Source of the DNA: Pecten maximus
Taxonomy: Eukaryota
Assembly: GCF_902652985.1 (NCBI RefSeq)
Contig: NC_047026.1
Coordinates: 21,762,001 to 21,826,000, forward strand
DNA length: 64,000 bases
Direction: 5' to 3'
Below the pieces are notes generated by a model that saw only the letters and a program-made list of their open reading frames with translations, made no database searches and was not told the origin of the DNA. A program made the position numbers and the translations under genes. Shown one piece after another: positions 12,201-56,545 of the stretch (within the stretch, counting starts at the first letter, position 1; each line of letters begins with the position of its first letter).

Positions 12201-15200
12201 TACAAGTCTGTCATTTCGAATTTGAATTGTGAATTTCTGTTACCATAATTCTGTGTGTTCGGAAGTTTTATGAAGTTATATCAACAGCTGACGTCATTTA
12301 AGTCTATCAGACACCAACAGGCCTTTCAGACCTTTTATTGTTATTGCTATCATTTTAAAAAAAAGTATCTTCTGACCAGATATTTGTTATCATACGTCAT
12401 ATGGCAATGTGTTTTACCATCTACATTTTTATTTCATCGTCTTGTTTTACTATTGCAAAACCTGTGTGATGAAATATATTTAAAAGTTGTCATTTTGCAA
12501 AACCTAATAGGATGAAATATGCTATGAAAAACAACCTATGATAATTTACAGCGAACACCTGATGTAGAGAGTAGCGGATCACATATTACTTACAGCGAAC
12601 ACCTGATGTAGAGGGTAGCGGATCACATATTACTTACAGAGAACACCTGATGTAGAGGGTAGCGGTCACACGTTACTTACAGCGAACACCTGATGTAGAG
12701 GGTAGCGGATCACATATTACTTACAGAGAACACCTGATGTAGAGGGTAGCGGTCACACGTTACTTACAGCGAACACCTGATGTAGAGAGTAGCGGATCAC
12801 ATATTACTTACAGCGAACACCTGATGTAGAGGGTAGCGGATCACATATTACTTACAGAGAACACCTGATGTAGAGGGTAGCGGATCACATATTACTTACA
12901 GCGAACACCTGATGTAGAGGGTAGCGGATCACATATTACTTACAGCGAACACCTGATGTAGAGGGTAGCGGATCACATATTACTTACAGCGAACACCTGA
13001 TGTAGAGGGTAGCGGTCACACGTTACTTACAGAGAACACCTGATGTAGAGGGTAGCGGTCACACGTTACTTACAGCGAACACCTGATGTAGAGAGTAGCG
13101 GATCACATATTACTTACAGCGAACACCTGATGTAGAGGGTAGCGGATCACATATTACTTACAGCGAACACCTGATGTAGAGGATAGCGGTCACACGTTAC
13201 TTACAGCGAACACCTGATGTAGAGGGTATCGGATCACACGTTACTTACAGCGAACACCTGATGTAGAGGGTAGCGGATCACACATTACTTACAGCGAACA
13301 CCTGATGTAGAGGATAGCGGTCACACGTTACTTACAGCGAACACCTGATGTAGAGGGTAGCGGATCACACATTACTTACAGTGAACACCTGATGTAGAGG
13401 GTATCGGATCACACATTACTTACAGCGAACACCTGATGTAGAGGGTAGCGGATCACATATTACTTACAGCAAACACCTGATGTAGAGGGAAGCGGATCAC
13501 ACGTTACTTATAGCGAACACCTGATGTAGAGGGAAGCGGATCACACGTTACTTATAGCGAACACCTGATGTAGAGAGTAGCGGATCACACGTTACTTACA
13601 GCGAACACCTGATGTAGAGGGTAGCGGATTACATGACAATGTCGTTTCCGTGTGTATACAGGTATCGGCATCTCCCTCTTAGCTAAATATAACGATAGTA
13701 TAAGGGCTATCGCACTTGTCCTGAAGGAAATGAAAGTATTTATCAATGACATTTATTTCACTGAAACGGTAATACTAACGTTTTCTTTGCGTCAAAATTC
13801 ATGAAATATAGATTAAATTTCTTTTAATATAGCTCACAATAATAACTTAATGTTTATATAGACTATGCCTATGATCTATAAACTATAATCATCCCAGTTT
13901 AGCCGTAGTACTACTAAATTCAGTTAGCCCCCGGTTTAATAAGTGTTTCTGTGACAAACCATTTCTATCACTAATTGATGGATATACATGTACTGTATTG
14001 ATATCCAGCAAATGTAACCGATAAAAACAATCTTCGAGTCACGTCAAATTGATGTGAGAAAGAAATATGATCCATCTGTTAAATATAACATTGGAACAAA
14101 ATATATTCCTGACTGTAATCAGAGATCTACTCACAGTAATGAAATGCCCCAGTGAACCTGTGCAAATTTAGTAATGGATTTCACCATGAAAATGCCGAAT
14201 AGAAGGATGGTCGGAACAATGGTTACAGGGCCAATAAACTTCAGCAAGACTCCAACCAATCCAGTAGCTCCTATCAGGAAGTGTATGGCTCCAGCAGCCA
14301 ATAGACTGCCTTGTAACTAATAGAAAATAAGTGGTAAGAATTTTTCTTGCACTGGTTTCATTAATAACAAAGAAAACGCGACTTTTTATCTTTGTTCAAA
14401 GTTTCGCATTTGAAAAGTAAATATATAAGTGATCGTTTGATCCCGTTTAATGTATTAATCCCCATCGTGCACATCTTCGCTAGCCAAGGCTTCTGATTAC
14501 GTTACACTCCACGAACCCTTGGCAGATATAGGCGTCAGTTCTGGCCCTCTAGCGGAGATTCGAAATTACCACCCTTTACACATGAAATTTTTTACCAACC
14601 AAAACGAACGTTACCGATTTACTTCATCGGTGATGTTTACAAACGCACATGGAGGCTTGTGTCATTTTGATGAGATATGTGATCAATGACTTCTATTAAT
14701 TGATCAATCACTGCGAATGTTTCCCAATGATTGTACGTCTCTGTATTTAGATACAATACCATGACATAGTCGACAATGTAGCTCTGCACTGGGCGCCGCA
14801 ATTGTTGTTTACTGTGAAACCAAGCCTAGATGTAAAACGCGATTTGATTGGGTGCCCTGGGATTCCAGGGCACGACGGTTTGAACACGACTATATCTGCC
14901 AAGGGTTCGTGGAGTGTAACGTAATCAGAAGCCTTGGCTAGCGAAGATGCATCGTGCATTGCTACATGTAAACAATAATAAAGGAAAGGAATTTGTACTT
15001 ATCAAATTATCTTGTATGTATTATGATATATGTTGTCATTTACCCCCTGTACAGCTTCCAGAATGATTTCTTCAGTACCCTCTTGGAATACCGTTTCTGT
15101 CACGTTTGTGATGTTGTTGAAAACTGAAAGAGAATGATAGTTCTAGATGAATGTTGTTACCGCCAATTTGACATGGAACATTAATATGTTATATACTTCT

Positions 15201-20085: not shown

Positions 20086-20247
20086 TGGAGTATAATCAAT
20101 TATTTACCATAGTATATCATGCCGTACATGTACAAGTAAAATAGTGTGTCGAATAATTGAATACTACACCGTAAATTCGCATTTGGCTATTGTATTCATA
20201 AACATATACATTAGACATGGTATGTGCTAAACAGCTAAACTGCTGAC

Positions 20248-20486
20248 AGTAGTCTAGGACATACGTATGGGTCATTTTTTCCCCTATATGTCTTTGCATG
20301 GCCGCCATCTTGATTGTGGAGGGAAACCGGAAGTGTAATCAATTGGACCTTTAAATAGTTAACAATGAAAAACCCCATTGTGTCAATATTAGTTTGGTTA
20401 TAACAATCGATTAAAGGTTTATTAGGATATTAGTTCAAAGGGTCGTAGACCCTTTATTATGAAGTACACCTGTTCAAGATGACACA
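20248..20486 (+). repeat. Polinton left TIR (~240 bp)
   Basis: Reverse complement of 29289-29549 apart from a few substitutions and one ~22-bp indel. Confidence 0.93.
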
Positions 20487-21549
20487 CTCAATTTGACCTT
20501 TAAATAGTTTACAGTGGAAAATCCCATTGTGTCAATCGATATTTTTTTTTGTCGTTTGTTGTATTTAAATCCTTTGTTATGTTTGGCTGGAATCACATCC
20601 CTAGTAGGGTTATGACTGCTCTATTTTAAATATATGACAAGGTGTGATGTCATGGTAACATAACATTACAAGTAACAATTAACCAATCATATTAATGTAC
20701 GTGTATACACAGTTTTTGTACCGATTGCGCAGACCATAAGTGAGCAATGCTACAACACGTCAGAAGACAAGGTGTATGTCATGGCAACATAACATTACAA
20801 ATAAAACAAACCAATTGTATTAATGATAATTACGGATTTCTCAAACCATACACTAATAAAGACTATTAATGCCACGAAACAAACACTTCTTTTTTATGTT
20901 AGCTGCGAATTTAAGGTGGAAGAAGTTCAACAGAAACGTACCTTCAAGGTAACTATCAATATAATTATCATATTTTTGTTATGTATAAATGCATTTAGAA
21001 AACATAGAAAATATATTTTTGTTTGCAAGGGGATACAATGTATGTACATGTTTTTAATTTTGTACCGAGAAATTGAAATATTTTTGTCTATACGCCCGAG
21101 TACATTTGTAAACAAGAACAGACTTGCGGACAATGGACGGGATTGCTACAGTAAACTATTAATATATTGTACGTTAATTTTTACCTAGACTGGCCACCAG
21201 ACCAGTTGTTTTGTTAAGAATTACCAAGCTAAATTCTAATACTAGATTATCTGCCCCTAGTTTGAAATCTAGAATCAGACATATCCTAGGGATCAAAACC
21301 ATAAAGCTCAATTTTATTTATAATTTTAATATTCTAGAGACAGGGGGCCAGTCTAATGTTTACCGGACTGTCCAAATTTATTTATTCATGCATATCTTTT
21401 ACCATCAAAGATGTAAGATAAAAAAAACAAAAAACAAAAAACAAAATACCAAATGTATGTACAATGATTTATTTACAAAATCGTATTAAATTTCATAGAC
21501 ATTAGCAATAAAAAATGTCAGAAAACTATACACTAAGAATATTATATAA

Positions 21550-22635
21550 TTATGCATCAACAGCATCATTTGCATTTATCCAGGATGAAAACTTAATTGG
21601 CCAGTGAAGCCATTTTACATACAGCTGTTTATTTCGCCCTTTACCTCTTGTTTTTAAAACTTTTTCAATTTTCCACATGTCATCGTCTCTAAGATCCACT
21701 TTCTGCAGTTCTGATTGATAAAAAGAACCCGTGATTTCAACATCATTGTAGTCTTTCAATCGGTAAATTGGCACAGATTGCCTCCAGAACCGTTTTGCTA
21801 TAGTAAATATTTCACCAGTCCATCTTTCATCATACTCGCGGGTAAATATGTTTCTCAAATATGTAATGCGCACGCTGTCACCGACGTTAAATCTGAATCT
21901 CATCTTCTTGTTGGGAATTGTGTTTTTTGTATGCCTGGACAAATATGTATCCAGTCTCACAGTTTCAGCGTTGTCCACTGTCACATCAGCTGGCGCAATG
22001 TCGATGGTGTTATGTATCGTTTGGTTATAACCGTCCACAAAACTCTGCAGTTGGTCAATGTAACGATACGATTGTTTGTACGTAAAGTATCTGTACAATT
22101 TTGTCTTAACGGTTTTCAGTACGCGCTCGCTAACGGCGGCCTTGACCTCTGATTGTGCATACATGTGCCTAATGTCTCGCGTGCGAAACAGGGACTGAAC
22201 AACTTTTGCTCTAAATTCTTGACCCTTGTCCGTCCTGATCCTACTTGGATGTCTCCCTTGGGTGAATATATCTTTAAATGCAATGGCCACTGAGTCACCT
22301 CTCAACCATAGAAATTTCGAGAACACATCGATGACAACCAAAACGTAGGAAAATTCGTCGTTGTATTTTGAAAACTTGACCATGTCGATGAGGTCAGCCG
22401 ACCACTGGTCATCTATTCCTGCGACGTTGATGTGACTTCTGTTCGCTGGTTTCCTGTTTGGTCGTTGTAAGCTGTATGCCTCGTGTCGCTGGAGCCATTT
22501 CCTTGTCTTGTATTTACTGATGTTGAATTTCCCTTCCTTTTTGACAAATCGATACACTTTGTCGGGTCCTGATAGACTTGCCGGTTTCGAGGGATTAAAG
22601 TAAATATCCCTCAGATAATCCTCCCAGGCAGCCAT
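21550..22635 (-). CDS. Polinton c-integrase (rve, DDE) with C-terminal chromodomain, 361 aa
   Basis: WSADLIDM (D), IDVFSK, IRTDKGQEF (D), AVSERVLKT (E), YNQTIH, WTGEIF, GSFYQSELQ, chromodomain IEKVLKTR...YVKWLHWP...SW. Probably a ~6-codon in-frame deletion at WLR^GDSV (inferred from family pattern). Confidence 0.93.
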   Translation of the reverse strand: MAAWEDYLRDIYFNPSKPASLSGPDKVYRFVKKEGKFNISKYKTRKWLQRHEAYSLQRPNRKPANRSHINVAGIDDQWSADLIDMVKFSKYNDEFSYVLVVIDVFSKFLWLRGDSVAIAFKDIFTQGRHPSRIRTDKGQEFRAKVVQSLFRTRDIRHMYAQSEVKAAVSERVLKTVKTKLYRYFTYKQSYRYIDQLQSFVDGYNQTIHNTIDIAPADVTVDNAETVRLDTYLSRHTKNTIPNKKMRFRFNVGDSVRITYLRNIFTREYDERWTGEIFTIAKRFWRQSVPIYRLKDYNDVEITGSFYQSELQKVDLRDDDMWKIEKVLKTRGKGRNKQLYVKWLHWPIKFSSWINANDAVDA

Positions 22636-22684
22636 GGTGTGTACCTTCCAAACTTATGATAGAATGCGTGCTTTTGCATAACTT

Positions 22685-24168
22685 TTATTCGTCCGCCTTT
22701 TCATCGTATTCTTCAAAGTCATCCTCGTCCTCCTCCTCATCCTCGTCACCAGAAGTTAATCCGTCGTCTTTATACATGTACTCCTGGAAATGATGTTTGT
22801 TCTTTAAAAGAGACATGCGTACAGAAGACCGAATGTTGTAGCCACCTCGTCTATACTTTTTCACGGATTCTATGGTTTTTGTATGAAGATTTCCACCTTT
22901 AATTTGAAAGATGTTGATTAGCGTCTGCGCGTATTCATTAAGGAATCCCATTAGATCGTCATCTTCCATCTTCTTATATGCCTTACATTCTGCTTCTTTC
23001 TTTGAAAATCACTGTCCTTTGTATTTGTCTACTCGTTTACTCCATTTCTCTTCGTTCTTGGATTTAGCTAGTTTGAGCTTCTTGGTGAAGTAATCATCCT
23101 CTTTTGAGTTTTCATTCTCTGTTTCGTTTTCAGAGATACCATAGTCACCAAAGGTACTAATCCTCTGTTTCTTTGTGGGACTATCGCCTTGGTCATTACC
23201 ATCCTCAAACTTTCTTTTATGAATACTGTTTTCTGGGCACCACCGTTTCACATGCCTCTGTAGATCATGAATGTTCTCAAACATCAGACCGCAATCGTCA
23301 CATGAATGCATTTCTAAGGGTTCTTCAGAACATTCACTGGCAACGGTATCCCCCAAATAATTATTAAATGCGGTTTCGTTTTGTGAGGGATTCTTACTCT
23401 CCTGGAGCTTTGTGGTGTACGTCTGCCCTAATGTACTTCCTTCAATAGAATGGGACCTTGGTTCCCCTTGTAGCTCCCTTTTGTTCTGTGTCGTGACCTC
23501 CGATTGGTCATTTAAAACGTCAGTGCGCAGGCGCAGATGTTCCGGAGTTTTAGGTTTTAAATCCACTAGTAAATAACCGTACGGTTTGCTGGTAGCCTGT
23601 TCAAAGTGACGCATAAAGTGTTTTGCGTTGTCGGGGTACATCTGTCGTGCTAGTGTCATGGTTTGTTGTCGATCAATGGGATTGTTAAAAAACCGCCAAA
23701 TAGTGGCAATTTCTTCTCTGTGTCGGATCTTTACTATAATAGAGGTTTTGGTTTATAGCAATGACCGACAAGTTCCGGTCTGACGGTTGTTTTAATGACG
23801 TTATATAGATGCTGCCATCGTTTATACAGCCATATAATTCGTTCTGGTGGTGGATTCAGTTTATCGATGTTGTCCTGTAATAGCTTTGTTACGAAATGCG
23901 TCTTCCCACAGGACGTCGGTCCGGACACAATCATCGTAAAAGGGTGTTCGAAACTAAACTGTTTCGAGTCTTCGGAGCTTTTATCCATTGTGATATGCAG
24001 TGCTCCCGGTGCTCTCGGTGCTCCCGGTGCTCCCGGTGCTCTCGGTGCTCCCGGTGCTCCTTTGATTTGTGCTTCGTCCACTGTTGAATGTTGTTTCTTG
24101 GTATGTCTTTGTATACTGTATCGGCTACAGAACGTCTTTTGACACTGTGGGCACGAAAAACTATACAT
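22685..24168 (-). pseudogene. Polinton packaging-type (A32/FtsK-like) ATPase fusion: N-terminal C2H2 finger, GAP repeats, ATPase, Zn-finger/acidic C-terminal domain; disrupted
   Basis: Walker A HPFTMIVSGPTSCGKT; Walker B region missing; alternate frame RNLSVIAINQNL...RRNCHYL; +1 frameshift in the T-run near 23690; ATPase C-terminus LARQMYP...ATSKPYGYLLVDL...RLRT; ORF 22685..22969 is in frame with 23009..23659 across one premature TGA. Confidence 0.85.
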
Positions 24169-24367
24169 CTTTACGCTCCAAGACTGCGAGTGAGAATGAT
24201 GTCTTGTTTAAATGTTTATAGATTTTATACCGTTAAGCAAAATGCATTGTTGGTAATTTCCACTGCATTGTGGGTAATTTCCACTGCATTATGGATACGA
24301 TATTGGTTATATTTTCAGGAGATTCCAGATCGGCATTCAGTGCCAGAGAATCTGTACAGACGACAAG

Positions 24368-27300
24368 ATGGGATATGACTGTAAGCAGTGCGGAGCTTCA
24401 TTTACCAAATCCAGCCTACTACAGGAACACAAAAGAATCAGGGGCCACGGAGACAAATTTAAATGTACTGTTTGTGGAAAATCCTTCGGGCGTAAGGATA
24501 ATTATGATAGACATTTGTTACGACATGCAGACTCATCATTATGTCAATGTGATGATTGTGGAATGCTATTTAGTAGAGGTGATAGCTTACAACGTCACCA
24601 GGAGCAGAAACATGGTCAGTCTGGAGGAGGTGTTAAGCGACATGCTGATGAGGAAAACATTGATCCAACACCTGTTAAGAAAACGGCAAAGACAACAGAC
24701 GACCTCTACTCTCTTCGTGTCATTAAAGAGACAAATATACCTAAATTTCAAACCTCAGCAACACATTACAAGGTAGATTTTGAAGATTTGGAAGTGCGCG
24801 GAGTTGTAGAAATTTTAAAAACACTGAAGAGCATTTTTCAGTCACTCATCAGGAATGTCACAGAATTCATGGAAAGCAATGATTTAGTTCGATTGTCCGT
24901 CGAATGCCCCGAGTTAGATTTCCCTATCTCACTACCTTTTATGAAAGTTTCAGCTTTGACGCCAGAGAGGTTACTGTCAGAGATAGAGCGCGTGTTGCAG
25001 TCATATGAACAGTTCGTTCTCGATCAAACTCTATATATGGAACTTGTTCATGTACATCTGCCAAAAGGTGGTGTAGGGAAACGATGTCATTTTGTTGATT
25101 TAGACAAGATGATAAAAAGCAAACGATGTTTCATCAGAATCCAAAACAACGACAATTTATGCTGCGCTAGAGCTCTCGTGACCGCCATAGCACGACATGA
25201 AAAGCATCCAAAATGGGAAAGAATACGGCATGGTGGAAAGATACAAGAAATATTAGCCAAGGAGCTCCATACAAAAGCCAGAATACCGTTGCAAAAGTGT
25301 GGAATTACAGAAATCAGATTATTTCAAGAAGTGATGCAAGACTACCAGATAGTAGTGCTGTCGAAGGAACACTTTAACGCCATCGTGTTTTCCGGACCCG
25401 AACGTGAAAAACAACTATACCTATACCATCATGACGACCATTACGATGTTGTTACAAGTATGCCTGCTTTTTTGAATAAGAATTATTATTGCACTCAATG
25501 CAAGAGGGGGTATGATCACAAGGAGAAACACAAGTGCAATGACCCCTGTGTCTATTGTCATCACATCCATCTCGAGGAAGTGGAGGAATGGAAGTATTGC
25601 CAAGATTGTAACAGGTATTTTAAACATAATCTGTGCTTCGACAGTCACAAGAAACCCTCTGTTTCAGGAAAAACAACTTGCGCCTCGTACTATCGATGCA
25701 AGAACTGTGATCAAGCCATCAATGTTGACATGCATAAAAAGGCACACGTGTGTGGTGAACGCTATTGTAAGACGTGCAAGGATTACTTTGATGAAGATCA
25801 TAAATGCTACATGCAAACAGTTGTAGCGGATGAACCATCGCAAAAGCAATGTGAGGGAACCAAACAACTCCAGACGTACATATTTTTCGACTTTGAATGT
25901 ACCCAAGACGACGTGATGGAGTGCGAAAGAGGTTATAAACCAGGAGCAGACAAGCGGTGTATCAACTGTAAAAAGTCTCGTTGTGGTTCATTCAGACATC
26001 AGCCGAATTTATGTGTGGTCCACAAAACGTGTGCTGCCTGCATAAACAGCGATGTAACATCTCAAGTGAATGCAAAAACTGTGGACCAAATGAGAAGATC
26101 TTTGGCGGACCCGAGACGACAAAGGACTTTTGTAAATGGTTGTTTTCGGAAGAAATTTTTGATGCCAAGGTCTTGTGTCATAGCTTTAAAGGTTATGATA
26201 GTTACCCTATCCTTGGATATCTATACCACAATGGGATGCTTCCTGAAGTTGTCACAAGTGGTTTCAAATACTTGAGTATTAATGTACCGCAATGCCGCAT
26301 TCGCTTTATTGACAGCATCAATTTCTTACCTATGGCTTTAGCAGAATTACCGAAAGCATTTGGAATCGAGGAACTAGCTAAGGGATACTTCCCTCATTTA
26401 TTCAATCGCAAGGAAAACCAGGAAATATGCATGTCACACTTACCTGATAAAAAATACTATCACCCAGATGGTATGAAGCCAAAAAGGAGAAAACCATTCA
26501 TGGAATGGTACAAAAATAACAAAGACCATTCATTCACCTTCCATGAAGAGCTTCTGAAGTATTGTCGATCTGACGTAGACATTCTCCGTAAGTGTTGCTT
26601 AAAATTTCGGAAAATGTTCATACAAATGACAAATAAAGATGGCAGTGCTGGAATCGACCCATTTCAGAATTGCATCACCATAGCATCTGCCTGCAATCTT
26701 GTGTACAGAACAATGTTTTTGGAGTCTGAAAGCATTGGTATCATACCACCACATGGATACAGACCGGAGGATAAACAATCTATCAAAGCAATGAAATGGC
26801 TGAAATTCATCGCAAATACTGAAGGTCTTAGAATTCAGCATGCATTACATGATGGAGAGAAAACAAATAGGACCTTACAAAGTCGATGGGTATACCGAAA
26901 ACAATGAAGGAAAAGAAACTGTCCTTGAATTCCACGGATGTTTCTGGCACGGTTGCACGAAATGTTATGCCCGTAGCACTATCAATACTGTAACCGAATG
27001 CACCATGGCCGACCTCCATATGAGAACGCTTGACAAACAACGCTATCTGCAAAATCTAGGGTACGAATACAGATGCATATGGGAATGCGACTTTGAACGG
27101 CAAAGTAAGGTTGATGAACTACTGAAGTCATTTTTAAAGACATTAGACGTTGAAGACCCCTTAGAACCAAGAGACGCTTTCTACGGAGGAAGAACGGAAG
27201 CATTTACTATGTATGCAGAAGCTTCAAAAAACAGACAGATCAAGTACTATGACGTAACATCCCTTTATCCATACATCAACAAAGTTGGGAAAGTACCATT

Positions 27301-28760
27301 GGGCCACCCTACCATCATCACAGAAAACTTTCAAAATATAGAGGAATACGAGGGTTTGATCAAATGCAAGATGATACCTCCAAGAAACTTATTCATACCC
27401 GTTCTTCCGTATCGCTCCAATGGAAAATTGCTGTTTCCGTTATGTCGTACGTGCGCCGAAGATTCATCAACAGCAAAGTGTTGTCATGGTGACCAAAAAA
27501 GGGCTATCACTGGAACATGGGTCACTGACGAATTGAAAACTGCCATCAGAAAAGGATACAGACTGTTGGAAACGTACGAAGTATGGCACTTTGAAAGCAT
27601 TTCACAATACGACACTGTTTTGAAAACTGGTGGTGTCTTCACTGAGTACGTAAACACCTTCCTGAAACTCAAACAAGAAGCTAGCGGATGGCCTAACTGG
27701 TGTAAAACTGACCATGATAAAGTAAAATACATCAATGACTTTTATGATAGAGAGGGCATACTTCTGGACAGAGAAAAAATCGAGGAAAATCCTGGGTTGA
27801 GGAGACTGGCCAAGCTCATGCTTAACAGGTAGACATTTTGCTTTATTTTTATTTTATTTTTTTATTTTTCTTAATTCTATTTGTATAGTACGATTTAATG
27901 TTATGTCGGTAGCAAAAGGAAATTTGAAACTTTAATCAAATATATTATTTTATATATTTACAATAAATGGTACATTCTTTTGATTTTTGTTTATATTTGA
28001 TCAGTTAAATTATGAATTGGAACAATTGAAAAACGTCTGTAAACAATTTATGTTTGTACATTACAGTTTCTGGGGAAAGTTTGGTCAACGCACAAGCATG
28101 ATACAGTCATCATATATATCTGACCAGTGTGAGTACTTTGACATGATGTCTAGTGACAGCCAAATCGTCAAAGATGTCAACTTTGTATCGGATGAGATGG
28201 TGAGGATGGATTGGAACTACGACAGTGATTTTCTGACAGCTTCTGGTCGCACAAATGTTGTAGTTGCTGCCTACACAACTGCACAGGCAAGACTCAAGCT
28301 GTATAGCTACCTGGAACCCCTGGATAGAAGTGCACTATATTGTGATACAGATTCAGTGGTGTTCACGGTGGAGCCAGGGCAATGGAAGCCTAATCTTGGA
28401 GATAATCTTGGTGATCTAACTGATGAGGTGGAAGGAACGAGCATTGTTAACTTTGTCACGGGAGGCCCAAAGAACTATGCATATACACTCTCAAAACCAA
28501 ATAAGGATGGTGAAATGAGTTGTTGCAAGGTTCGAGGAATAACTCTTAACTACAAAAACTCTCTAGAAATAAATTATGACACTGTGAAAGACATGGTTTG
28601 TGGCAAGAAGAAAAAGGTTACTGTGTGTGATGAACTCAAAACTTGTAGAGACAAACAATCATGTAACCTCTTGACAACATTGGAAAATAAGGATTATCAG
28701 ATTGTTTTTGACAAGCGTGTCATGTCCAACAAATATGTCACTCTTCCGTATGGAATGTGA
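24368..28760 (+). pseudogene. Protein-primed family B DNA polymerase (pPolB), ~1385 aa reconstructed; 2 frameshifts (~26064, ~26861) and 1 intron (27829-28066)
   Basis: ExoI FFDFECT, ExoII HSFKGYD, ExoIII YCRSDV, motif A YYDVTSLYP, motif B KLMLN|SFWGKFGQ, motif C YCDTDS, GGPKNY, KVRGITL, terminal TLPYG. Confidence 0.94.
27829..28066 (+). other. Spliceosomal GT-AG intron (238 bp) in the pPolB gene
   Basis: AACAG|GTAGAC ... AT-rich ... TTACAG|TTTCTGG; splicing yields AAC AGT TTC TGG GGA AAG = NSFWGK. Confidence 0.9.
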
Positions 28761-29288
28761 ATGTTTACGTATGGATGGCATGATAACATACCCCCAAACC
28801 AACTTAATGGTTGTATAAACGATAGTGTAACCATTCTATTTAGCAGGTTACGTTTGTCCATTGATACATGTGCAAGACATATTTATAATGTTCAACTGTA
28901 TTTTTCATATATAACATGTATCGTGTATGATGTGGAAGTTGATTTACTCCTTAACTGTATACATTGTATAAACCATTGATATGCTATTAAAAGGTTCATT
29001 AATCAATTACGTTTAAATTCCTTTTTGTTTTTATTCTTGTTGTTGAAGAGCAGATACGTATACATATGTAAGTTAAAAACTGTGGATCATTTTTTTATAA
29101 TGGTAGAGTTCATACTCAAATACAAATGGACAAACGTCTTATAATGTGACATTTATATTGTTTTAGATAATGATGTACCTATGACAATAACACAATAGCA
29201 ATGTAACGTTAGTGACGATAAAAGGATTTTTTTTTTAAACTGACCAGAGTTCCTTTCAGACAACGTTGTCACAATAGGATCATTAGAA

Positions 29289-29549
29289 TGTGTCATCTTG
29301 AACAGGTGTACTTCATAATAAAGGGTCTACGACCCTTTGAACTAATATCCTAATAGACCTTTAATCGATTGTTATAACTAAACCAATATTGACACAATGG
29401 GGTTTTTCATTGTTAACTATTTAAAGGTCCAATTGATTAACCTTTAATCAATTGTCATAACCACTTTCGGTTTCCCTCCACAATCAAGATGGCGGCCATG
29501 CAAAGACATATAGGGGAAAAAATGACCCATACGTATGTCCTAGACTACT
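29289..29549 (-). repeat. Polinton right TIR (~260 bp)
   Basis: Reverse complement of 20248-20486. Confidence 0.93.
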
Positions 29550-29717
29550 GCTGACGTTAAGCACAGTAATGGGACACATAAATAATGAGGCTTCTGTGTC
29601 TAGGATCAGTGATTAAGATACCACTGTAAATTCGGAAGTACTATTTCAGTCGATGCATGTCATATCGAATAAGAAATTTGTATTATGGCCAGTGTACTAC
29701 AAAGATAAAGTGAAAAG

Positions 29718-30621
29718 GTTACTAAAATGATTGTTTCATTCCTTCATACCTTACTAGAATGAGTATCCCATTCCTTACTACGTTACTAGTATGATAGTCT
29801 GATTCCTTCATACGTTACTAAAATGATTGTCTCATTCCTTCATACGTTACTAGAATGATTGTCTCATTCCTTACTACGTTACTAGAATGATTGTCTCATT
29901 CCTTCATACGTTACTAGAATGATTGTCCCATTCCTTCATACGTTACTAGAATGATTGTCTAATTCCTTCATACGTTACTAGAATGATTGTCTCATTCCTT
30001 ACTACGTTACTAGAATGATTGTCTCATTCCTTCATACGTTACTAGAATGATTGTCTCATTCCTTACTACGTTACTAGAATGATTGTCTCATTCCTTACTA
30101 CGTTACTAGAATGATTGTCTCATTCCTTCATACGTTTCTTAAATGATTGTCTCATTCCTTACTACGTTACTAGAATGATTGTCTCATTCCTTACTACGTT
30201 ACTAGAATGATTGCCTCATTCCTTCATACGTTACTAGAATGATTGTCTCATTCCTTACTACGTTACTATAATGATTGTCTCATTCCTTCATACGTTACTA
30301 GAATGATTGTCTCATTCCTTCATACGTTACTAGAATGATTGTCTCATTCCTTACTACGTTACTAGAATGATTGTCCCATTCCTTCATACGTTACTAGAAT
30401 GATTGTCTCATTCCTTCATACGTTACTAGAATGATTGTCTCATTCCTTCACACGTTACTAGAATGATTGTCTCATTCCTTCATACGTTACAAGAATGATT
30501 GTCTCATTCCTTACTACGTTACTAGAATGATTGTCTCATTCCTTCATACGTTACTAGAATAATTGTCTCATTCCTTCATACGTTACTAGAATGATTGTCT
30601 CATTCTTTCATACGTTACTAG
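29718..30621. repeat. 32-bp satellite, block 1 (~28 units), CGTTACTAGAATGATTGTCTCATTCCTT(CAT/ACT)A
   Basis: Direct inspection. Confidence 0.97.
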
Positions 30622-31911
30622 TGTAACGTAAACTGAGCGTGATTGCTGATATTTTCACGAGAAGACAGACTACAATATATACAAGATTTATTTACAATTT
30701 GTACAAGCATGTATATTAACATTTATTTATAAACACGCTCATTACACAATCTTACATACAGCACACTCTGATACATTCATAAGACACATAAGCATAAATA
30801 CATAAACATAGACACATAAGCATAAATACATAAACATAGACACCCTATTCCCTACAAGTCTCTCAAAGGCCACCACAGTTGAACATCGAGTCCACACAGT
30901 TACGTTGCTAAGCTCCAGGTGAACATGAACAACAAAGTCTCCATCATAAGTTCCTCACAATCCAATCAGTGCCGTCTTATACAGCGGAACAAAATCACGC
31001 AGTGCTCAATATATATTGTACTGAACATGGTCAGCATCCACAACAGGGAATCAACATTATAGTAGAACAGAATCTCTACGTCTGTAATGATTATACCAAG
31101 ACGTTGAATATCTCAACAACTGTGACGTCATCAATAACAATGTCACATCTCTGCCGCGATGTGTATCACCGCTCAGACATACCACGCAGGTTATGTCGGT
31201 CCATCCTTCCACAACAGGGAAGGTTCACAACAGGCATACAATTCATAGGACGAGTAGGATCTCGTAATACATAAATCAGTACAGCTATTCGGCCCTCGGC
31301 TCTAGGCCTCCATACCATAGGTGGGTAGTGTTCATGGTCTCATCAATTACGGTGTAGGCCCATCAAGCTACAACAATATAGTAATTACAATTTACTTAAC
31401 AGTTATATTTTATGTATTAAACTATTTAAACAATATATATTCCACACTACATATAAGCAAAACCATACTTGTAAACATACTAGATACTCGCGCTCATTTA
31501 CCGACGACACACAATACACCGCACGTGCCTCACTAGTACTAGGCCACGCCTAACAATACAGGTAACATTTAGCGACTATAAAACACTATAAACACACTCA
31601 AACTGGCAAATATAACAACAGACAACCTATTGATAACGTTATGGGGTAATATTGGGTTATATTTGATGGAAATACTTACCCCAATCTGTAGTTTGGGCGT
31701 CGAACAGGGCTACGCTCCAAATACCCGCTGCTAGGTTTTTTACCTGTCCGCCTGTACTCCCGCTTACCTGTTGCTAATGCGCACACACCCTGCCGCGGTC
31801 TCAACAGTTGAGAAACGGCGCGCAATTTAAAACTCTTAAACCAATACTCAGGACTAAAACAAATACATACAAGTTACAAATACTTACATACACCAGATAT
31901 GGCATGTGACA
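30622..31911 (-). repeat. 3' LTR (1290 bp; carries a 28-bp internal duplication absent from the 5' LTR)
   Basis: Direct repeat of 36660-37921 with about 11 substitutions counted by eye. Confidence 0.95.
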
Positions 31912-31990: not shown

Positions 31991-34900
31991 TCACATTCTG
32001 CTGAGGAAATCCGCACCAACGTTTTCACATCCTCTGATTGCACGTTTTCGGAATTTGTACGGTTGTAGTTGCAGTGCCCATCTCATTAACCTCGCATTCA
32101 CACCCTTCATCTTGTTCAAGTATATAAGTGGTTGATGATCTGTCTCCAACACGAACTCCTTCCCATAGATGTATTTTTGGAATTTCTGAATGGACCACAC
32201 TACAGCCAAACATTCCTTCTCAATCACGGAATATGCGCATTCACTGGACTTCAGTTTTCGGCTAGCATAAGCCACCGGAAGTAAATGGTCTCCCTCCATT
32301 TGCAGTAAAATACCGCCTATTCCCTTATCTGATGCATCGGTCTGGAGAGTGAATTCCGCTTCCAAGTCAGGTAACTTCAGTATTGGACTAGATGATAGGA
32401 TCTTCTTCAGAGTGTTGAACGCTCTCTCATGAGTGTCCTGCCATATCACCTTGTTTGGCATTCCCTTTCTTGTCAGGTCAGTCAATGGAACAGCAATAAC
32501 AGCAAAATTAGGGATGAATTTCCGGTAAAATCCGGCCAGACCCAGAAAAGATCGCACCTGCTTCTTCGTCGTTGGTCTCTCCGCTTCGCTGATTTCTTTG
32601 ACCTTGTCCGGGGTTGGTAGCAATCCTTGCTGTCCAACAATATGTCCCAAACACTCTAGACTACTATATCCAAGCGCGCATTTACTTGGTCTCGCTGTCA
32701 ATCCAGCCCCTTGCAGTCGTCTGAACAATTCTGCAAGTACAGAAACGTGCTCCTCCCATGTCTTCGTGTAGATTAACAGGTCGTCTATAAAACTGTCTAT
32801 GTTGGTCATTCCCCGAAGAAGTTTCCTCATCAATCGACAAAAAGTCGCTGGGGCGTTTACAAGACCAAATGGCATGACTGAGAATTCGAATAATCCAACA
32901 GGTGTTGAAAATGCCGTTTTCTGTCTGGAACTCTCTGACATAGGAACTTGCCAGTAGCCTTTACTAAGGTCAAGACGGGAAACATTGGTGACCCGCAAGT
33001 CGCGAGAAAATATCCTCGGCGTCTGGCATCGGTTCGGCGTCAAATACGGTTATCCGATTCAGGTGACGATAATCGACGCAAAACCTATTCGTGCCATCTT
33101 TCTTCCTTACGATCACAACCCCTGCCGAATAAGGAGACTTTGACGGATGAATAACTCCCATCTTCAACATCTTGTCTACCTCATCCCTGATAGTTTCCTT
33201 CATGTTGAATGGAATGTTGTGAGGCTTGAGTCTAACTGGTTCGGATGTTGTCGTCTTGATGTCATGCTCAACTAACGACGTATTCCCGGGCATATCAGTC
33301 AGAACATCAACAAATTCCTCCATCAGTTCTGTCAAATCCTTCCTTTGTGGTTTGGTCAACAGCTCAGAAACTAATACATCTTCAGCTGACTCCTTCCTCC
33401 CCAACTGAGGCATCGTAATATCCTCCAACAGACCATCTTCGTAATCAACCGTCTCCTCTTCCTCTTCATCCACTATGGACACACAAACAACAGACATAAT
33501 TCCGGATTGCTGACATGCAGAGTTCTCTCCCCTCTCAACGTATCTCCGTAGGAGGTTGGCATGCACAGTTTTCACCTTTCCATCAATGTCGACCTTATAA
33601 TCCATTGAACCCATCTTCTCTGTAATCCGGTATGGTCCTCGCCACTGCATCTCTAACTTGTTCCTCTTCGTTGGCAACAAAATCAAAACCTTCTGGCCAA
33701 CATTCAGTTGTCTTTCCTTAGTCTTCCGGTTATAGTAAGACGCTTGGCGGATCTTCGATGTCCGAAGTTGCTTCTGGGCCATCTCACAGGTGTCTTCTAG
33801 CTTTGCCTTCAGATCAATGACATACTGGTAGGTAGTCTTTGTCTCAGGATCCGGAACTTGTTTGGTCCAAAGCTCCTTTAAGATCATCATTGGCCCTCTG
33901 ACAGTACGATCATACAGCATCTCAAATGGTGAAAAGCCAAGACTCTCTTGGGGAACCTCACGATACGCGAATAGTAGTGCGTTGATATATTTATCCCAAT
34001 CCCTGGGTCTTTCAGCACACATCCGACGAAGCATTTGTTTAAAAGTTCCATTAAACCTCTCGACTAGGCCATTACACATCGGATGATAGGGTGTTGTGGT
34101 CAACTGGCGAATAGATAGTAAACGGCTTACCTCCCTCATGAGTTCTGATGTGAATTGAGCTCCCTGGTCTGTGAGTACCTCGCTTGGGACACCAACACGA
34201 CTATAAATATCGACCAGTGCCTCGGCGACACGCTCCGTCTCGATTCCTTTCAATGGTATGGCCTCTGGATATCTTGTGGCATAATCCACTAGTGTTAAGA
34301 TATAGCGGTTCCCACGGTCTGTAGCAGGTTGGAGTGGCCCCACCAGGTCAATAGCTACGCGCTGAAATGGCGTTCCAATGAGTGGTATAACCCCTAACGG
34401 AACCTTGGTCACCCTGCCCTTGGGAAATGTCCGTTGGCAGACATCACACGAGCGACAAAATCTTGTCACATCTGACGTCAACCCAGGCCAATAGAACTCT
34501 GATAATATCCGCTCGGTCGTCCGTTTCGCCGCTAAATGGCCAGACATCACAGAATCGTGAGCCAACTTCATCACAGCAGGTCTCAACTTGGTCGGTACCA
34601 CCAGCTGCTTAAACAGCCTTCCCTGTGCTGATGATGGACTCTGAAACTCTCTGTATAATAGACCCCTCTTGACATAGAAATGAGACTTACCGCCATCTGA
34701 TCGTATCTTCTTGTCATCATTCCTCGCCAATTGCCATAGCTTCACAAGACTGTCATCAGCTTCCTGTTCAGCTTTGATCTCATCAGGAGTAGCAAAGTTG
34801 TCTGCAGTAGGTACATTCAATGCGCGATAGGGTCGGTTCTCCTTCTGCCGTTGAGCCCTTGTCTGTACAGCAGCAACAGCTTCCACCTTCCAATCAGTAT

Positions 34901-36281
34901 CTGGATCTCTAGGCTGTCTCGCACCCTCGATGTTTCCAATAATTACATCATACAGTGGATTGTCCATACACCACGCCACGACAGAACCAACGTAATACGG
35001 TGTGTTGATAAAAACAGTAGCAATAGGAACCTCTAACTTAGAACCATCTGCTAGCTTACATGTTTGGGTCTCACCAGTCATCTGCTCTTCGCCAACTAAA
35101 CTCCGCTTGATTACCACTCCAGAACATCCGGTATCTCTTAACACTGACACAGGAGACTCATCAACACGACCATCTACAACCGGCATCTCATCAGACTTAG
35201 GAATCTTCACATAGCAGGATATGTTTACTCCAAAATGCTCGCTACGTCTACCAGTCGTAACTCCAACTTTACCACTACTTGACTTCTTCGGACAATTGTA
35301 AGACATGTGGTCTGGTTTCTTACAAATAAAACAATGTTTACCTCCAGTCTGTCCCTTCTTAAACTCCTTGGCATCAGAATGAGAATTGGAAGATTGCTGG
35401 TTCTTCATGCTAGACGAGGTCTTATCAAACTTCCGGGCTGGTCTTACAAAGTTAGACGCGTTCCCTCTAGCCTCAGCGAATTGGTCAGCTAATGTAGACA
35501 TCTCAACAATACTCTTGGGAATCCTCTCCTTAAGAAAAAGTTTCAACTCATTCCCACACGCCTGTAAGAATTGGTCTCTTACCATCAGGTCTCTCAGGCC
35601 ATCATACGTCTTATCAACGGATGCCATCTCCATCCACCTAACGAGGTCGCTCTCAAGCCGTACCGCGAACTGCGAAAAGGTCTCGCCTGTTTCCGGTCGC
35701 CCACTTCGGAATCTTTTCCTAAAGCTATCCTCGGTCATCTCGAAACGCTTTAACAATGCTCCCTTCAGCACATCATAGTCAAGACTCTGATCAACAGGCA
35801 ATCTAGAGAATACGTCCAGAGCTCTTCCCTTCAACAAAACACTAAGGTTCGAAGCCCATTGTGTGGTCTTGTTCCATCCTTGCGTTGTAGCATACCGCTC
35901 AAACCTTTGAAGGTAGGAATCAATATTATCCTTCCCCTCCTCAAAAGCAGGAAGTTTCGGTCCCCTCGCTGATACAGAAGGTGACTTACCTTGATCCATT
36001 TGTGGTTTCCTCTCCTCCTTCTCTAATAGTTCCATCTTTCTTGCATGATCTCTAGCAGCTCTTTCTTCTTTGTCCATCTCCAAAGCACGTTGCTCCTTCA
36101 ATATACTCAGCTTAATCTGCTCCACTTTTTGCTGTTCGTCCCATTCCTTCTGCTTCTGTTCCCGTTCACTCTGTCTCTCATCTCGCTCTCTATCCTGCTC
36201 ATCTTTGACAAACTTCTGTAAATCTGTGCCTTTGTACCCAAGCTCAGTTCCAATCTCCATAACAACTTTGACCGCCGTCAT
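31991..36281 (-). CDS. Gag-Pol polyprotein (SCAN-like capsid, CCHC, protease, integrase, RT, RNase H) with one frameshift at ~32980
   Basis: CFICKKPDHMSYNC; LRDTGCSG; HHCC (AHD..GHL..CDVC); IDLVGP/TDQG/VERFN; RFCVDYR, LDLSKGYWQ, MPFGL, FIDD; LQTDAS. Likely start MTAVK at 36281. Confidence 0.93.
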
Positions 36282-36636
36282 TTTGTCAATCTCAAAAGTC
36301 AGTACAAAACCTGCACCACAGTATTTGCTTGAAATAATATTTACAAAACACTGCATTGGTACACAACAACAACAACACAATGTACAAAATCCTGCAATAC
36401 ATCTAAAAATGAAAGATGATATATCAGCAAAGTACATAAAGTTTGACTTACCTGGAATCCATGTACAGCCACAGGTCTCCATCTGTTAGTAGCTACTTAA
36501 TGCCTATACTGTACCCCAGGACCTCCCCAGTATCATACTTACCATAAAGCAATATCACACTTTCTCGAAACAACTAACATACCCTCGTATACATAGCTAT
36601 CAACTCGCAAACACATTTCTCTCTCAACAATCGTTT

Positions 36637-44258: not shown

Positions 44259-44543
44259 AAACGCTACCCCGAAACTTGCAATAGACTGTGTTATATTTGA
44301 CCAACGTCTCATTGCCAGTTAGTGCTGTATTTGTAAAGCAACATTTGAACTGAATTCTTTACGTGTAATATATGTGTTTATTATAATTTCATAAGCACAT
44401 TCATCTACAGCTTCGTATCGCGTTGTAATGATCATTTCAAATGACTGTAATTGTGGTACACGCGGAACAAACAGTAACGCATAAAACAGGAACAGACTAA
44501 TGTGCACTACAAGCATTGAATTACCAGCAAACGCCTTCTCAAT

Positions 44544-45998
44544 ATGTCTTCAGACAGTCCATCACGAGAATCTGATGAAAACGGTGACTTTATCGAAGAA
44601 GAGATTAGCATGACGTCATCACAAATAGACAAAGGCGTTTTCGTTCTTCTAAATGAAATCGCGGGAGGACTTGATAGAAACGCATTTAAAGAAAAAGTTA
44701 AATCAATATACAAAAGCAAGTCCGAAGACCTAGCATGTATACGACAATCGCTGTACGATATCGCCATAGTCAATCGACCCGAGACACCTCGTGGTGAACT
44801 TGTTAGAAGAAGAAACGTGGGAAATACTACAGCAATTGATAAATTTGTGGATGATATTTATATACTATTTCACTATATTGACGGCAATATGGGTTTGTCC
44901 GATATACGTAATGTCATGTCTTACAAGGACCGGTCTCTTTCCACATGTGACACGACGCTTACGAACAACGGCAACGATGCAATTAATGAGTCCTTTAATG
45001 AGACAGCCCCCAAAGAAATTGGCTGTAACCCTAGAGATAATAATACACGGGCAGTGTTCAGCAAAATGGAAAAAGGGAGAGAACAGACGAAAGGAAGTGA
45101 ACTGGAAGGTGTAAACGCAGATTTATTGATATTAATTGTTGGAATGCGAGAAGAAATATTAGGTCAATTGAATGTCATTACAAAGGAGTACACGGAAGAA
45201 ATTCGCGAACTACGGTTAGAAGTGAAAGATCTTCGCGAAAGTGTATCAGCAAAGGACAAAACAATCAAAGCTCTGGAAACACGATTAGAACACATGAAGC
45301 AAAACGTCGTTAACACACCTGCCGTTGTACAGTCAGTTCCAACTACAACTGTATCATATGCAGATGTCACGCGCGTACCTCGGTCACTAGACACACCACG
45401 ACAGAATAGCAGTGGACAACAGTGCAATAGAGCTGGGGATATTACGCCAAATGGAAATGGACTCAGTGATCAAACCAAATCTCCTAAATACAATGATTCT
45501 GATCATTCGGCGAATACTGACGAGGATTATGAAGATGGGTATGTGTGTGCAGGAAACGCCGCAACTGGTGTCTTGTCAGTTACCGTTAGAGACTCTACAC
45601 CAAGAGGAACTCGTAAAGACTCGCGACATGTGTCTTTTCATGGATATAATACGCAACAACAACTTGGAATTGAAAGAAAACAATCGCAATATGAATTTCG
45701 TGGTGTGAAACGTAAACCTAGAATAAAAAGAATGATCATGTCGCGAATTACAGCAGATGCACCAGAGGAGGATGTAATCAATTCGGTTGTTTCCTACGCG
45801 GCAAACAGAGGTGTCAAAGTAACATTCATGCGTATTCTGAAATATTGGAACGACATAGAACACCCCACGTACACGGCGAAACTGAATATTCTTGAACAAG
45901 ACTACGCGTCAGCGACAGATCCCAACTTTTGGCCTGAAAATGTACTTATCCGTGAGTGGGAAGATCGTAAGAATAGATTCGAACAACAAAAATATTGA
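44544..45998 (+). CDS. LINE ORF1p, 484 aa (coiled coil plus C-terminal RRM-like domain)
   Basis: Heptad region EIRELRLEVKDLRESVSAKDKTIKALETRLE; VSYADV; terminal FWPENVLIREW motif typical of LINE ORF1. Confidence 0.85.
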   Translation: MSSDSPSRESDENGDFIEEEISMTSSQIDKGVFVLLNEIAGGLDRNAFKEKVKSIYKSKSEDLACIRQSLYDIAIVNRPETPRGELVRRRNVGNTTAIDKFVDDIYILFHYIDGNMGLSDIRNVMSYKDRSLSTCDTTLTNNGNDAINESFNETAPKEIGCNPRDNNTRAVFSKMEKGREQTKGSELEGVNADLLILIVGMREEILGQLNVITKEYTEEIRELRLEVKDLRESVSAKDKTIKALETRLEHMKQNVVNTPAVVQSVPTTTVSYADVTRVPRSLDTPRQNSSGQQCNRAGDITPNGNGLSDQTKSPKYNDSDHSANTDEDYEDGYVCAGNAATGVLSVTVRDSTPRGTRKDSRHVSFHGYNTQQQLGIERKQSQYEFRGVKRKPRIKRMIMSRITADAPEEDVINSVVSYAANRGVKVTFMRILKYWNDIEHPTYTAKLNILEQDYASATDPNFWPENVLIREWEDRKNRFEQQKY

Positions 45999-48900
45999 TG
46001 GATGTAAATACAGGATACGTACAACTGCTATATTCGCTATGTTCCTTTTTGCTTGTGAAGCTACTTACATGGAATACAAGAGGTGTGATGTATGGGACAC
46101 CTCTCTTGTCCGAAATTCTTCGAAATGTAGACATAGCCGTTGTTACCGAACATTGGTTGCCTCCTGAGCAATTAAATTTCTTGGAAAGTATTGACAGTAA
46201 CTTCAGGTCGTTTGGAAGATCTGATAATCGCATACCAATTGATATTGAACAAAGGTCGCATTTTCGTGGTTGTGGAGGTATAGCAGTTCTGTGGAGGAAT
46301 CATCTAAAAGTAACGCCACTTCTTAGTGAAGGTAGTGATCGCGTGATAGTAGTAGCTGTACAGCTACACGATAAATCATTCCTGTATGTCATTGGAGCCC
46401 TTTTACCTTCTACGAACCGCCCATTGTATGAATATCAGGAAGCTCTTGAATGCGTGTCTGATTTGTTTGATCGTTATAGTGAACAAGGGCAAATTATCAT
46501 ACTTGGAGATTTGAACGCGCATATTTCAAAGAAATTCGGCGAAAAAAATCATGAGCGTGCCAATGAAAGGGGATTAATACTTGAAAACTTCATCCATGAG
46601 AAACAACTTTTATCTGCGAACTCACAAGACTGGTCTTTAGGATGTGACTTTACGTTTGTATCATACGACGGGGAACACCATTCTCTTATTGACCATATTT
46701 TGGTTGAAAGCAGTAAGTGTGACTTGGTGGCATCTTGTGAAACACATGATGATCACTTCCTCAACGTATCCGACCACCTACCTGTTACCATTGATTATGA
46801 AGCGGAATTATGTGTTACTAGAACGCATACAAACGCCCCTCGGACAGTTAACTGGAAAAAGGCTACATTTGAAGAGAAAACTAAATATGTGTCACAGTTA
46901 GACGAGAGATTGAGCCATCTGCTAAATCTTCGTGATTCCAGTATCAATTTTGATCAGCTGGAAAGCATTGTTAAGTATATTGTAGCTACGATACGGGAGG
47001 CTGCTAACGCAAACCTACCAATAAAGAGATACCGCCCATTTCTTAAACCTTATTGGAATTACGGGCATGTTAAGGAATTACATAATGCTATGCGGCAACG
47101 TCGTGAAAATTGGTTGAAAGAAGGACGTCCAAGAGGACATAACTATGAATCGTACAAAGTATATAAAGAGTCAAAGCGCGAATTTAGAAAATCATTGGAC
47201 GAAGCGCGGAAAACATATGAGGAAAAACAGATGGAGGAACTACAAGAGGCAGCCGAAATAGATATTGGAACATTCTACAAGGCGGTCAGGAAAAAGAAAT
47301 GCCACAAATTTGCGTCAAATGAACTGCGTATCGAAAATGAGATCAGTCGCGATTCGGATACTAACAGGAAAGCATGGGCTGAACACTATAAAAACCTGGC
47401 GAAACCGGGTACGCAACCACATTTTGATGCTGATTTCAAAGAGGAAGTACAGCGTAACATCGGACAAATGTACATGAACAGTTTTAATAACCAGAACACT
47501 ATATGCAAGAAAAACATTCGGTTTGATGAATTAACAAAAGCAATTGGCGATATGAAAAATGGGAAAGCAGGTGGTCATGATAGCATTATTGTGGAACATA
47601 TTCGTTATGGAGGAACTGTGCTGAAGAAAGTCCTAGTCATTTTGTTTAACATTATTATTGATCTGGAGGATTATCCTAAACACTTCAAGAAGGGAATCGT
47701 CATTACACTATTCAAAGGTGGAAAGAAAGATCGTCTGGACATGCACAATTACAGAGACATTACGTTGACTCCTGTACTGCAAAAAATATTTGAAAAAATC
47801 ATGTATCAGCGAATTTCAAAATACTGTTTAAAAGTTGGATTCCCACACAAGCTACAACAGGGATTTAGACCTCAATGTGGCAGTATCACCGCTGCATTCA
47901 CTGCAAAAGAATCAATCTGCCATTTTTTGGAGCGCAATTCAAAAGTTTTCGCCGCGTTTCTGGACAACGCAAAAGCATTCAACAGTGTTTGGATAAATGG
48001 ATTACTCGTGAAGGTATATCGATTAGGCATAAACGGTAAATTCTGGCGGATTCTGCATAATTCGTTTGCTGATGTGACTGCGTGCGTTCTTTACGACGGG
48101 GAAACGAGCGATGCGTACCCTATAGAGCAAGGGGTCGGTCAAGGACGCACGCTCTCTGCTTGGCTCTTCCTGGCTATGATTGACGATTTGGCGGTTAGAT
48201 TGGAAGATTCAGGCCTTGGGTTACATGTGCAAAGTGTCCATATTCCGTGTGTCTTCCTAGCAGATGACACATTACTTCTAGCTGCGTCGATAAGAAGTCT
48301 GCAGATGCAACTAGACATTGTTCATGACTATGCAAAGCTATGGAGACTCAATTATAATTCAACAAAGTCGTCACTTATGCAGTTTTCAAACCGGAAACGA
48401 CCGCAAAGTGAGCCTACGACATCGTGTTCCTTAGGAAATACCGCAATTGGATGGGTAACGTCAAAAGTGTACGCAGGAATAACTTTATGCCATAACCTTA
48501 AACCCGATTTGCAAATCGCGAGTTCGTGCAAGAAAGGTCGTAAAGCTGTTAATAGTCTTATTAGTGTCGGTATACATCAAAACGGAATGAATCCTTTAAA
48601 AAGTGTACGGATCATCAAATCAGTTGTCCTTCCAACTATATTGTATGGATGTGAGCTATGGGCAGATCCAACTAAATCATCTAGCAAAGAGCTCGAGCGA
48701 ACACAGAGGTATGCAGCTAGAAGGTGTCAGGGTTTCGAAAAAACTTCATCTTCTGCAATAACAACAAGAGCGCTTGGACTTCCCGATGTTTGGTGCGAAG
48801 TCGAGAAACGAAAATTATTCTTTTGGAATAAGGTGTGCAATGCTAGCACTGATTTCGTTTGGAAAACTTTATTCCTTATCCGGGTGAGTAACTTTATATT

Positions 48901-56000: not shown

Positions 56001-56545
56001 TTTCTGTGTCCTTTCTTTTGTCACTATTCTGTCTTTCTGTGTCCTTTCTTTCTTCACTATTCTGTCTTCCTGTGTCCTTTCTTTCTTCACTATTCTGTCT
56101 TTCTGTGTCCTTTCTTCCTTCACTATTCTGTCTTTCTGTGTCCCTTCTTTCTTCACTATTCTGTCTTTCTGTGTCCCTTCTTTCTTCACTTTTTTGACTT
56201 TCTGCGTCCCTTCTTTCTTCACTATTCTGTCTTTCTGTGTCCCTTCTTTCATCACTATTCTGTCTTTCTGTATCCTTTCTTTCTTCACTATTCTGTCTTT
56301 TTGTGTTTTTTCTTTCTTCACTATTCTGTCTTTCTGTGTCCTTTCTTTCTTCACTATTCTGTCTTTCTGTGTCCTTTCTTTTTTCACTATTATGTCTTTC
56401 TGAGTCCTTTCTTTCCTCACTATTCTGTCATTCTGTGTCCGTTCTTTCTTCACTATTCTGTCTTTCTGAGTCCTTTCTTTCTTCACTATTCTGTCTTTCT
56501 GTGTCCCTTCTTTCTTCACTCTTCTGTCTTTCTGTGATTTGTTTC
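53035..56545. repeat. 33-bp polypyrimidine/polypurine satellite (~105 units), TCACTATTCTGTCTTTCTGTGTCCTTTCTTTCT, with 30- and 32-bp variants
   Basis: Direct inspection; produces the KKERTQKDRIV-type spurious ORFs. Confidence 0.96.

Follow-up and report, generated by a model that had tools for sequence, protein, structure and literature searches.

Polinton/Maverick elements, the closest described systems to the locus considered here, share with it a pPolB DNA polymerase (PF03175), an rve integrase, a packaging-type ATPase, which is broken in the present copy, and long terminal inverted repeats (TIRs). According to the accessible portions of the respective papers, vertebrate Mavericks carry (AGT)2...(ACT)2 ends and a 6-bp target-site duplication (TSD), their core genes being intronless (PMC8097293), and nematode Mavericks likewise have intronless core genes, with introns in cargo only (10.1101/2022.07.12.499685). 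Introners have been described inside eupolintoviral elements of dinoflagellates (PMC12166617, in the sections available), and group I introns occur in PLVs (PMC12220804, as far as the available text goes). Our literature search found no account of spliceosomal introns in the pPolB of animal Polintons; none appears in the accessible parts of 10.1101/2023.08.22.554363, 10.64898/2026.10.13.758929, PMC6431247, PMC8502044 and the PLV papers, and the founding papers, Repbase and supplements may contain some. Since core genes are described as intronless, ORF-based surveys would score intron-split elements as broken. Where and how spliceosomal introns arise is a long-open question, and what is new here is a cluster of introns at near positions together with their restriction to the polymerase gene.

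The window analysed, a 64,000-nt stretch of the Pecten maximus genome (NC_047026.1, positions 21,762,001 to 21,826,000), contains one Polinton/Maverick element (Table 1), recognised by PF03175, a retroviral-like integrase, long TIRs of about 240–260 bp, AGTAGT/ACTACT ends and a 6-bp TSD, ends and TSD being the same as in vertebrate Mavericks. Just inside the left TIR, part of the TIR sequence is repeated over 49 nt (20488–20536, pair I7). The rve and Chromo matches of the integrase both fall under the curated cut-offs, and this protein shows 38–39% identity to the integrases of relatives. In the polymerase, exon 1 matches PF03175 in two pieces above the cut-off (E = 4e-21 and 8e-20), and the polymerase shows 57–60% identity to that of an intron-free relative, L013 (57% in exon 2). 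tblastn gave no match to capsid or protease genes in the element, which thus lacks the mark of a polintovirus, that is, of a capsid-encoding Polinton.

Table 1. Features of the Polinton/Maverick element in the window.
Feature	Coordinates	Strand	Remarks
Left 6-bp target-site duplication, GCTGAC	20242..20247	.	
Polinton/Maverick element	20248..29549	.	9,302 bp, ends AGTAGT...ACTACT; without capsid or protease gene
Left terminal inverted repeat	20248..20489	.	pairs I1 and I2, 96–99% complementary
High-copy host repeat in non-coding left arm	21186..21362		many high-depth contigs, loose ends on both sides
Retroviral-like integrase with C-terminal chromodomain	21550..22653	-	rve E=1.8e-6, Chromo E=0.002
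Small acidic ORF, no family	22685..23008	-	
Packaging-type ATPase, broken	23009..24207	-	172/230 profile columns, 2 frameshifts, part missing
pPolB exon 1: N-terminal C2H2 fingers, exonuclease, palm to motif B	24278..27828	+	
GT-AG intron	27829..28066	+	238 nt, phase 2, in Ser codon after motif-B Asn
pPolB exon 2: rest of motif B, motif C, C-terminus, stop	28067..28760	+	
Right terminal inverted repeat	29286..29549	.	pairs I1 and I2
Right 6-bp target-site duplication, GCTGAC	29550..29555	.	perfect match to left

Exon 1 contains two frameshifts, near 26011–26047 and near 26861–26865, both upstream of the intron. Because of these two lesions, the broken ATPase and the lack of any capsid or protease remnant, the window copy is a dead deletion derivative, a breakage outside the intron that the original prediction overlooked. 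Any role of the intron therefore belongs to the parent family. Two gene models of Mizuhopecten yessoensis (P0188 and P0046), 81–90% identical to the window polymerase, are unbroken across the 26861 frameshift and stop before motif B. A second intron proposed by the aligner at 25913–26049 was rejected, as relatives align straight through it and it merely skips a frameshift.

A 32-nt tandem array (29603–30766 and from 37804 onward, about 245 overlapping matches) starts just right of the Polinton, and between its two blocks sits a Gypsy-type LTR retrotransposon (31991–36485, minus strand) with two ORFs and a SCAN domain in gag. The window also holds a LINE (44520–49528, plus strand) with ORF1 and an endonuclease-reverse transcriptase ORF2, a second, stop-split reverse transcriptase (60558–62837, plus strand), two copies of a MITE-like element of about 475 bp with inverted ends of 57–64 nt (410–885 and 14472–14949), and a very T-rich segment (52934–56585, AT skew near -0.78), probably a simple repeat, in which both strands contain long frames free of stops.

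The original prediction had placed a 238-nt intron with a phase-2 split Ser codon inside motif B of this polymerase, and the ends of the insert, the reading frame and the profile scores all bear it out. The insert opens with GT at 27829 and closes with AG at 28066; exon 1 ends in AG and exon 2 opens with T. Read straight across position 27829, the frame encounters one Arg codon and then TAG, so that unspliced RNA would indeed meet a stop at once, as had been foreseen. The GC content of the insert is 20%, versus 41% and 43% in the flanking 238-nt stretches; its three frames contain six, six and two stops, and its length is not a multiple of three. Its last 62 nt contain no AG other than the terminal one, and a YTNAY-like word is found at -20. 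Scored against a profile built from 84 intron-free motif-B stretches, excision at 27829/28066 reached +43.6, compared with -11.4 for the next-best GT/AG pair and -54.0 without excision; as the profile favours exactly these ends, they are beyond chance. Furthermore, the RefSeq model XP_033756183.1 (P0001, Pecten maximus), which is a gene model and not a read, splices precisely there: it contains the final 274 residues of exon 1, joined through a single Ser to the complete 230 residues encoded by exon 2. Existing annotation thus already counts the insert as an intron.

Several properties liken the insert to U2-type introns and support the spliceosomal character claimed at the outset: a GT donor, a pyrimidine-rich YAG acceptor, exact restoration of the frame, the splicing of the RefSeq model at the same joint, a site kept in six further loci and 12 homologous proteins, and an intron sequence that diverges faster than the exons in two sister groups. 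A search of positions 20200–29600 against Rfam at the gathering score gave no match that would point to a self-splicing group I or II intron, and the 238 nt contain no TIR of the kind expected from an introner or transposon. A chance AT-rich insertion or a small mobile element that inactivated this copy and merely looks like an intron is hardly credible. In its favour, the copy is inactive on other grounds, and a 4-nt direct repeat does flank the insert; however, the repeat is what the splice consensus gives and is also present in L033 and L067, the exact GT-AG ends rebuild motif B, the identical site recurs in the loci and proteins just mentioned, and there is neither a TIR, nor an Rfam match, nor a second copy within the window or the 130 loci described below. 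One of the circumstances named beforehand as speaking against an intron, an insert private to this copy and bearing TIRs, was thus not encountered. Judged from its sequence, the insert is most likely a canonical GT-AG, working host-type (U2) intron.

Relatives were fetched by a degenerate pattern whose last codon is the motif-B Asn and which did not demand an intron. This yielded 130 loci, namely five viral loci, 118 metagenomic loci (about half of the matches in that collection) and seven from genome bins; searching viral contigs for related loci gave no result. Ten of the 130 have a polymerase of a distinct and probably non-Polinton kind and were excluded, and the remaining 120 were aligned with the window by a splice-aware, profile-based procedure. 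Before counting, 75 low-confidence introns proposed by the aligner were removed, and the in-frame intron of L006 and the GC-AG intron of L107 were restored by a looser rule, which also lets in some doubtful sites elsewhere in the polymerase and therefore weakens the enrichment reported below. A canonical, frame-restoring motif-B intron was present in 21 of the 120 loci, at four positions within 9 nt. Counted from the end of the Asn codon, six loci carry it at +2, as does the window, five at +7, two at +8 and eight at +10 (one of them GC-AG), the last three sites lying 5, 6 and 8 nt downstream of +2. The check on relatives proposed with the prediction thus found the window position shared by six other loci. 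These introns are 52–158 nt long with 19–42% GC. The other 99 loci lack a motif-B intron, one of them ending just after a possible donor. Clustered at 75% protein identity, 12 of 76 clusters, window included, contain a motif-B intron.

A protein search for ORF-called homologues, a length-limited set that favours fragments, gave a similar picture. Twelve of the 93 homologues read Arg after the motif-B Asn and then a stop or non-homologous sequence, as expected of an unspliced +2 intron, and 38 read through motif B; no spliced read-through member was seen in the clusters of the intron-bearing homologues. Homologues ending in 'SF' and then a stop were not counted as introns, since their cluster mates read through and the stops are probably nonsense or frameshift lesions. 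One +7 cluster includes proteins of the coral Montipora; the pattern is therefore not confined to molluscs. Two further observations concern the collection itself. The intron-free and degraded locus L046 has a 4-nt insertion exactly between the motif-B Asn and Ser codons. Seven bacterial GTDB bins (L124–L130) contain animal-type Polinton polymerase DNA, in one case (L126, a Cytophagales bin) with spliceosomal introns, and this DNA is probably host contamination.

To place the introns on a phylogeny, a quick LG+G4 tree including partial rows was computed from 74 of the 121 aligned rows, short, degraded, long-branch and near-identical rows having been dropped. Seventeen rows bear the intron, and the 57 intron-free rows lie between the intron-bearing groups. 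The intron state changes 10 times on this tree, at least seven of these changes being forced by the starred branches; by position there are three changes for +2, four for +10 and two for +7, and such counts do not separate gain from loss. Grouping into a single clade was rejected for the full set of 17 intron rows (AU p=2e-5) as well as for the +2 set of six (AU p=2e-47), p-values being only descriptive here because Polintons may recombine, the trees are quick ones with partial rows, and the events are not strictly independent. The window groups with six intron-free loci with 100% support, and the loci nearest to it (57–64% identity) have no motif-B intron, so that the window intron is not ancestral to its clade. 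The long, host-adapted nuclear residence that had been read from the intron can consequently be upheld only in part, given these intron-free neighbours and the capsid and protease genes kept by intron-bearing relatives.

The intron sequences tell a similar story. Similarity between introns is confined to sister groups, with none between lineages, and the window intron resembles no other (best z 3.2). In five +10 sister loci the introns are 57–76% identical versus 86–92% for the exons, and in three +2 sister loci 44–53% versus 73–81%, the intron ends being kept in both groups. The order is reversed for L016 and L107 (exon 56%, intron 66%), where a second intron lies inside the compared flank, and the difference is small for L014 and L067 (69% vs 59%). 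Tandem duplication of exon sequence was considered as a source of the introns and rejected, the flanks being dissimilar for 21 of 22 introns with one weak exception.

No single gene can carry introns at all four of these positions within 9 nt, and at least three of them must therefore have come about by new gain or by sliding. We favour the view that the window intron is one of several independent gains at motif B and not a regulatory switch, and consider it probable, if far from certain. The strongest competitor would be descent of these animal Polintons from an ancestor with a single old intron in motif B, which was lost many times and in some lineages slid by a few bases. Such an ancestor would account for the recurrence of +2 in distant lineages; the distances from +7 to +10 (3 nt) and from +2 to +8 (6 nt) would suit stepwise sliding, the +7 and +10 groups are close on the tree (85% support), and sliding accounts for 9 of 31 near-intron pairs in Drosophila according to the accessible part of PMC2891723. 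Against this stand the intron-free rows between the intron-bearing groups, which do not agree with the first criterion for sliding in that same part of PMC2891723, the lack of any intron sequence similarity between positions, and the recurrence of both +7 and +10 in separate groups, by which convergence is required anyway. Hence we regard a single ancestral intron as unlikely, though it deserves to be taken seriously. Spread of a few original introns between diverged Polintons, by recombination starting in the best-conserved DNA, strikes us as improbable. It would explain why distant lineages have identical sites, as well as the association with conserved columns described below; yet introns are unlike between lineages, even allowing for their fast decay, and spread alone does not produce four positions.

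Independent gain raises the question of why the same few codons are hit. Leaving out the window's own event, four motif-B codons hold 9 of the 37 intron events in the polymerase core, versus an expected share of 0.9% calculated from coverage and proto-splice context; by distinct positions only, the share is 4 of 12 versus 2.2% expected (p=1e-4). Here too the figures are descriptive, since the events are not fully independent of one another. Motif B is not unique in this respect, motif A being similarly favoured: events per covering locus amount to 0.10 and 0.12 at the motif-A Ser site and at profile columns 659–664, and to 0.12 at motif B. Moreover, the 21 sites outside motif B sit in more conserved columns than chance would give (p=0.009). 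As to splice signals, +10 is the strongest cryptic donor among 2,181 sites in intron-free loci (37% of them), and the proto-splice context of +2 and +7 is unremarkable (78th and 44th percentile). Frameshift scars, used as a test of break repair, show no clear enrichment at motif B (3 of 51 columns versus 1.8%, p=0.065).

The introns are also unevenly distributed among the genes of the elements. In 11 loci with an intron-bearing pPolB, 30 high-confidence introns were found in 8,514 polymerase codons, and none in 7,322 aligned codons of the capsid-like, protease, integrase and ATPase genes of the same loci (p about 2e-5 when conditioned on one intron per locus, some loci being kin). Four loci (L022, L030, L075 and L126) have polymerases with four to six introns each, and their capsid, protease, integrase or ATPase genes are intron-free where present on the contig. 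Relatives retain genes for a major-capsid-like protein, a putative minor capsid protein and a cysteine protease, five intron-bearing loci (L022, L033, L069, L082 and L126) among them, and intron gain is therefore not tied to capsid loss. The names of these genes are to be read with care: the major-capsid cluster resembles double jelly-roll clusters, which is a lead only, the protease has a weak Peptidase_C5 match, and the minor-capsid label follows from size and place.

The original prediction also gave the intron a possible role as a switch that operates by tissue or in the germline. The third intron of the P element provides the precedent, its splicing being switched in the germline. By that analogy, retention of the window intron would lead to an immediate stop and destroy the enzyme; the motif-B intron is the only confident pPolB intron in the window, the L069 group and L024; and one presumed-RNA contig (27774–27968), which may be DNA, runs unspliced over the donor. 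Nevertheless, we consider a switch very unlikely. The motif-B intron is missing from most relatives, the donors of those that have it are mostly strong consensus sites, which regulated retention does not predict, and no part of the model needs motif B; an intron with a stop would be just as effective against the enzyme anywhere upstream of motif C. The window copy, moreover, can make no polymerase. The claimed dependence of polymerase expression on host splicing would apply to an intact copy. Contigs from four presumed-RNA runs (three samples, two studies) barely cover the gene, and none shows the 27828/28067 joint, which speaks neither for nor against splicing.

Independent gain, which we prefer, could be pictured as follows. 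The intact parent element would be transcribed in the nucleus and its transcript spliced by the host. An insertion into a catalytic motif would survive only when cleanly spliced, and each gain would then be passed down within its subfamily. Conserved stretches of the polymerase may act as recurrent insertion points, the inserts arriving by break repair or being guided by the spliceosome to codons that resemble splice sites. A selective advantage of carrying an intron in the one long nuclear transcript might add to this. By analogy such a benefit is plausible because HUSH silences intronless mobile elements, according to vertebrate data in the available part of PMC8770142, although it would leave the position of the introns unexplained.

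A more speculative possibility, which we rate as doubtful, is that the catalytic motifs of Polinton polymerases are a recurring target of DNA cutting and that the introns are repair scars by which elements escape. The cutter might be a homing-type nuclease of a rival element, or a host nuclease directed at the least changeable viral sequence; inserts that can be spliced out would preserve the enzyme and destroy the target, leading to repeated intron birth. Such cutting fits the spread of positions and the missing homology between introns. If it did occur, Polintons would allow the birth of introns under conflict to be followed in nature.

Of the related loci sampled, about one in six is interrupted in motif B alone. 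Gain that recurs at a few motifs of a single gene, and not in the genes beside it, would provide a compact test bed for the origin of spliceosomal introns. The distribution among genes further implies a contrast with the capsid module, in that the polymerase gene tolerates or favours being spliced in the nucleus, and this bears on the cellular site at which each gene is expressed.

In viral polymerases, group I introns and inteins tend to sit in the best-conserved motifs, a preference to which that of the present introns may be likened. The inserts described here differ from them in being 52–238 nt long, AT-rich and bounded by GT-AG, and the window insert has stops in all three forward frames and no Rfam match. 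In contrast to vertebrate and nematode Mavericks, the window element has a polymerase with an intron of spliceosomal type and is without capsid and protease genes. With the dinoflagellate introners, as presented in the accessible sections of PMC12166617, our loci share the occurrence of spliceosomal introns within Polinton-like elements; those introners are copies of transposons that generate introns and are common in the genome of their host, whereas the present introns are unlike between lineages, lack TIRs and cluster at polymerase motifs. Finally, the near-intron pairs of PMC2891723, in the part available, which go back to sliding or to duplication at proto-splice sites, likewise comprise several intron positions within a few nucleotides, but here four such positions fall within 9 nt, with intron-free lineages between them.
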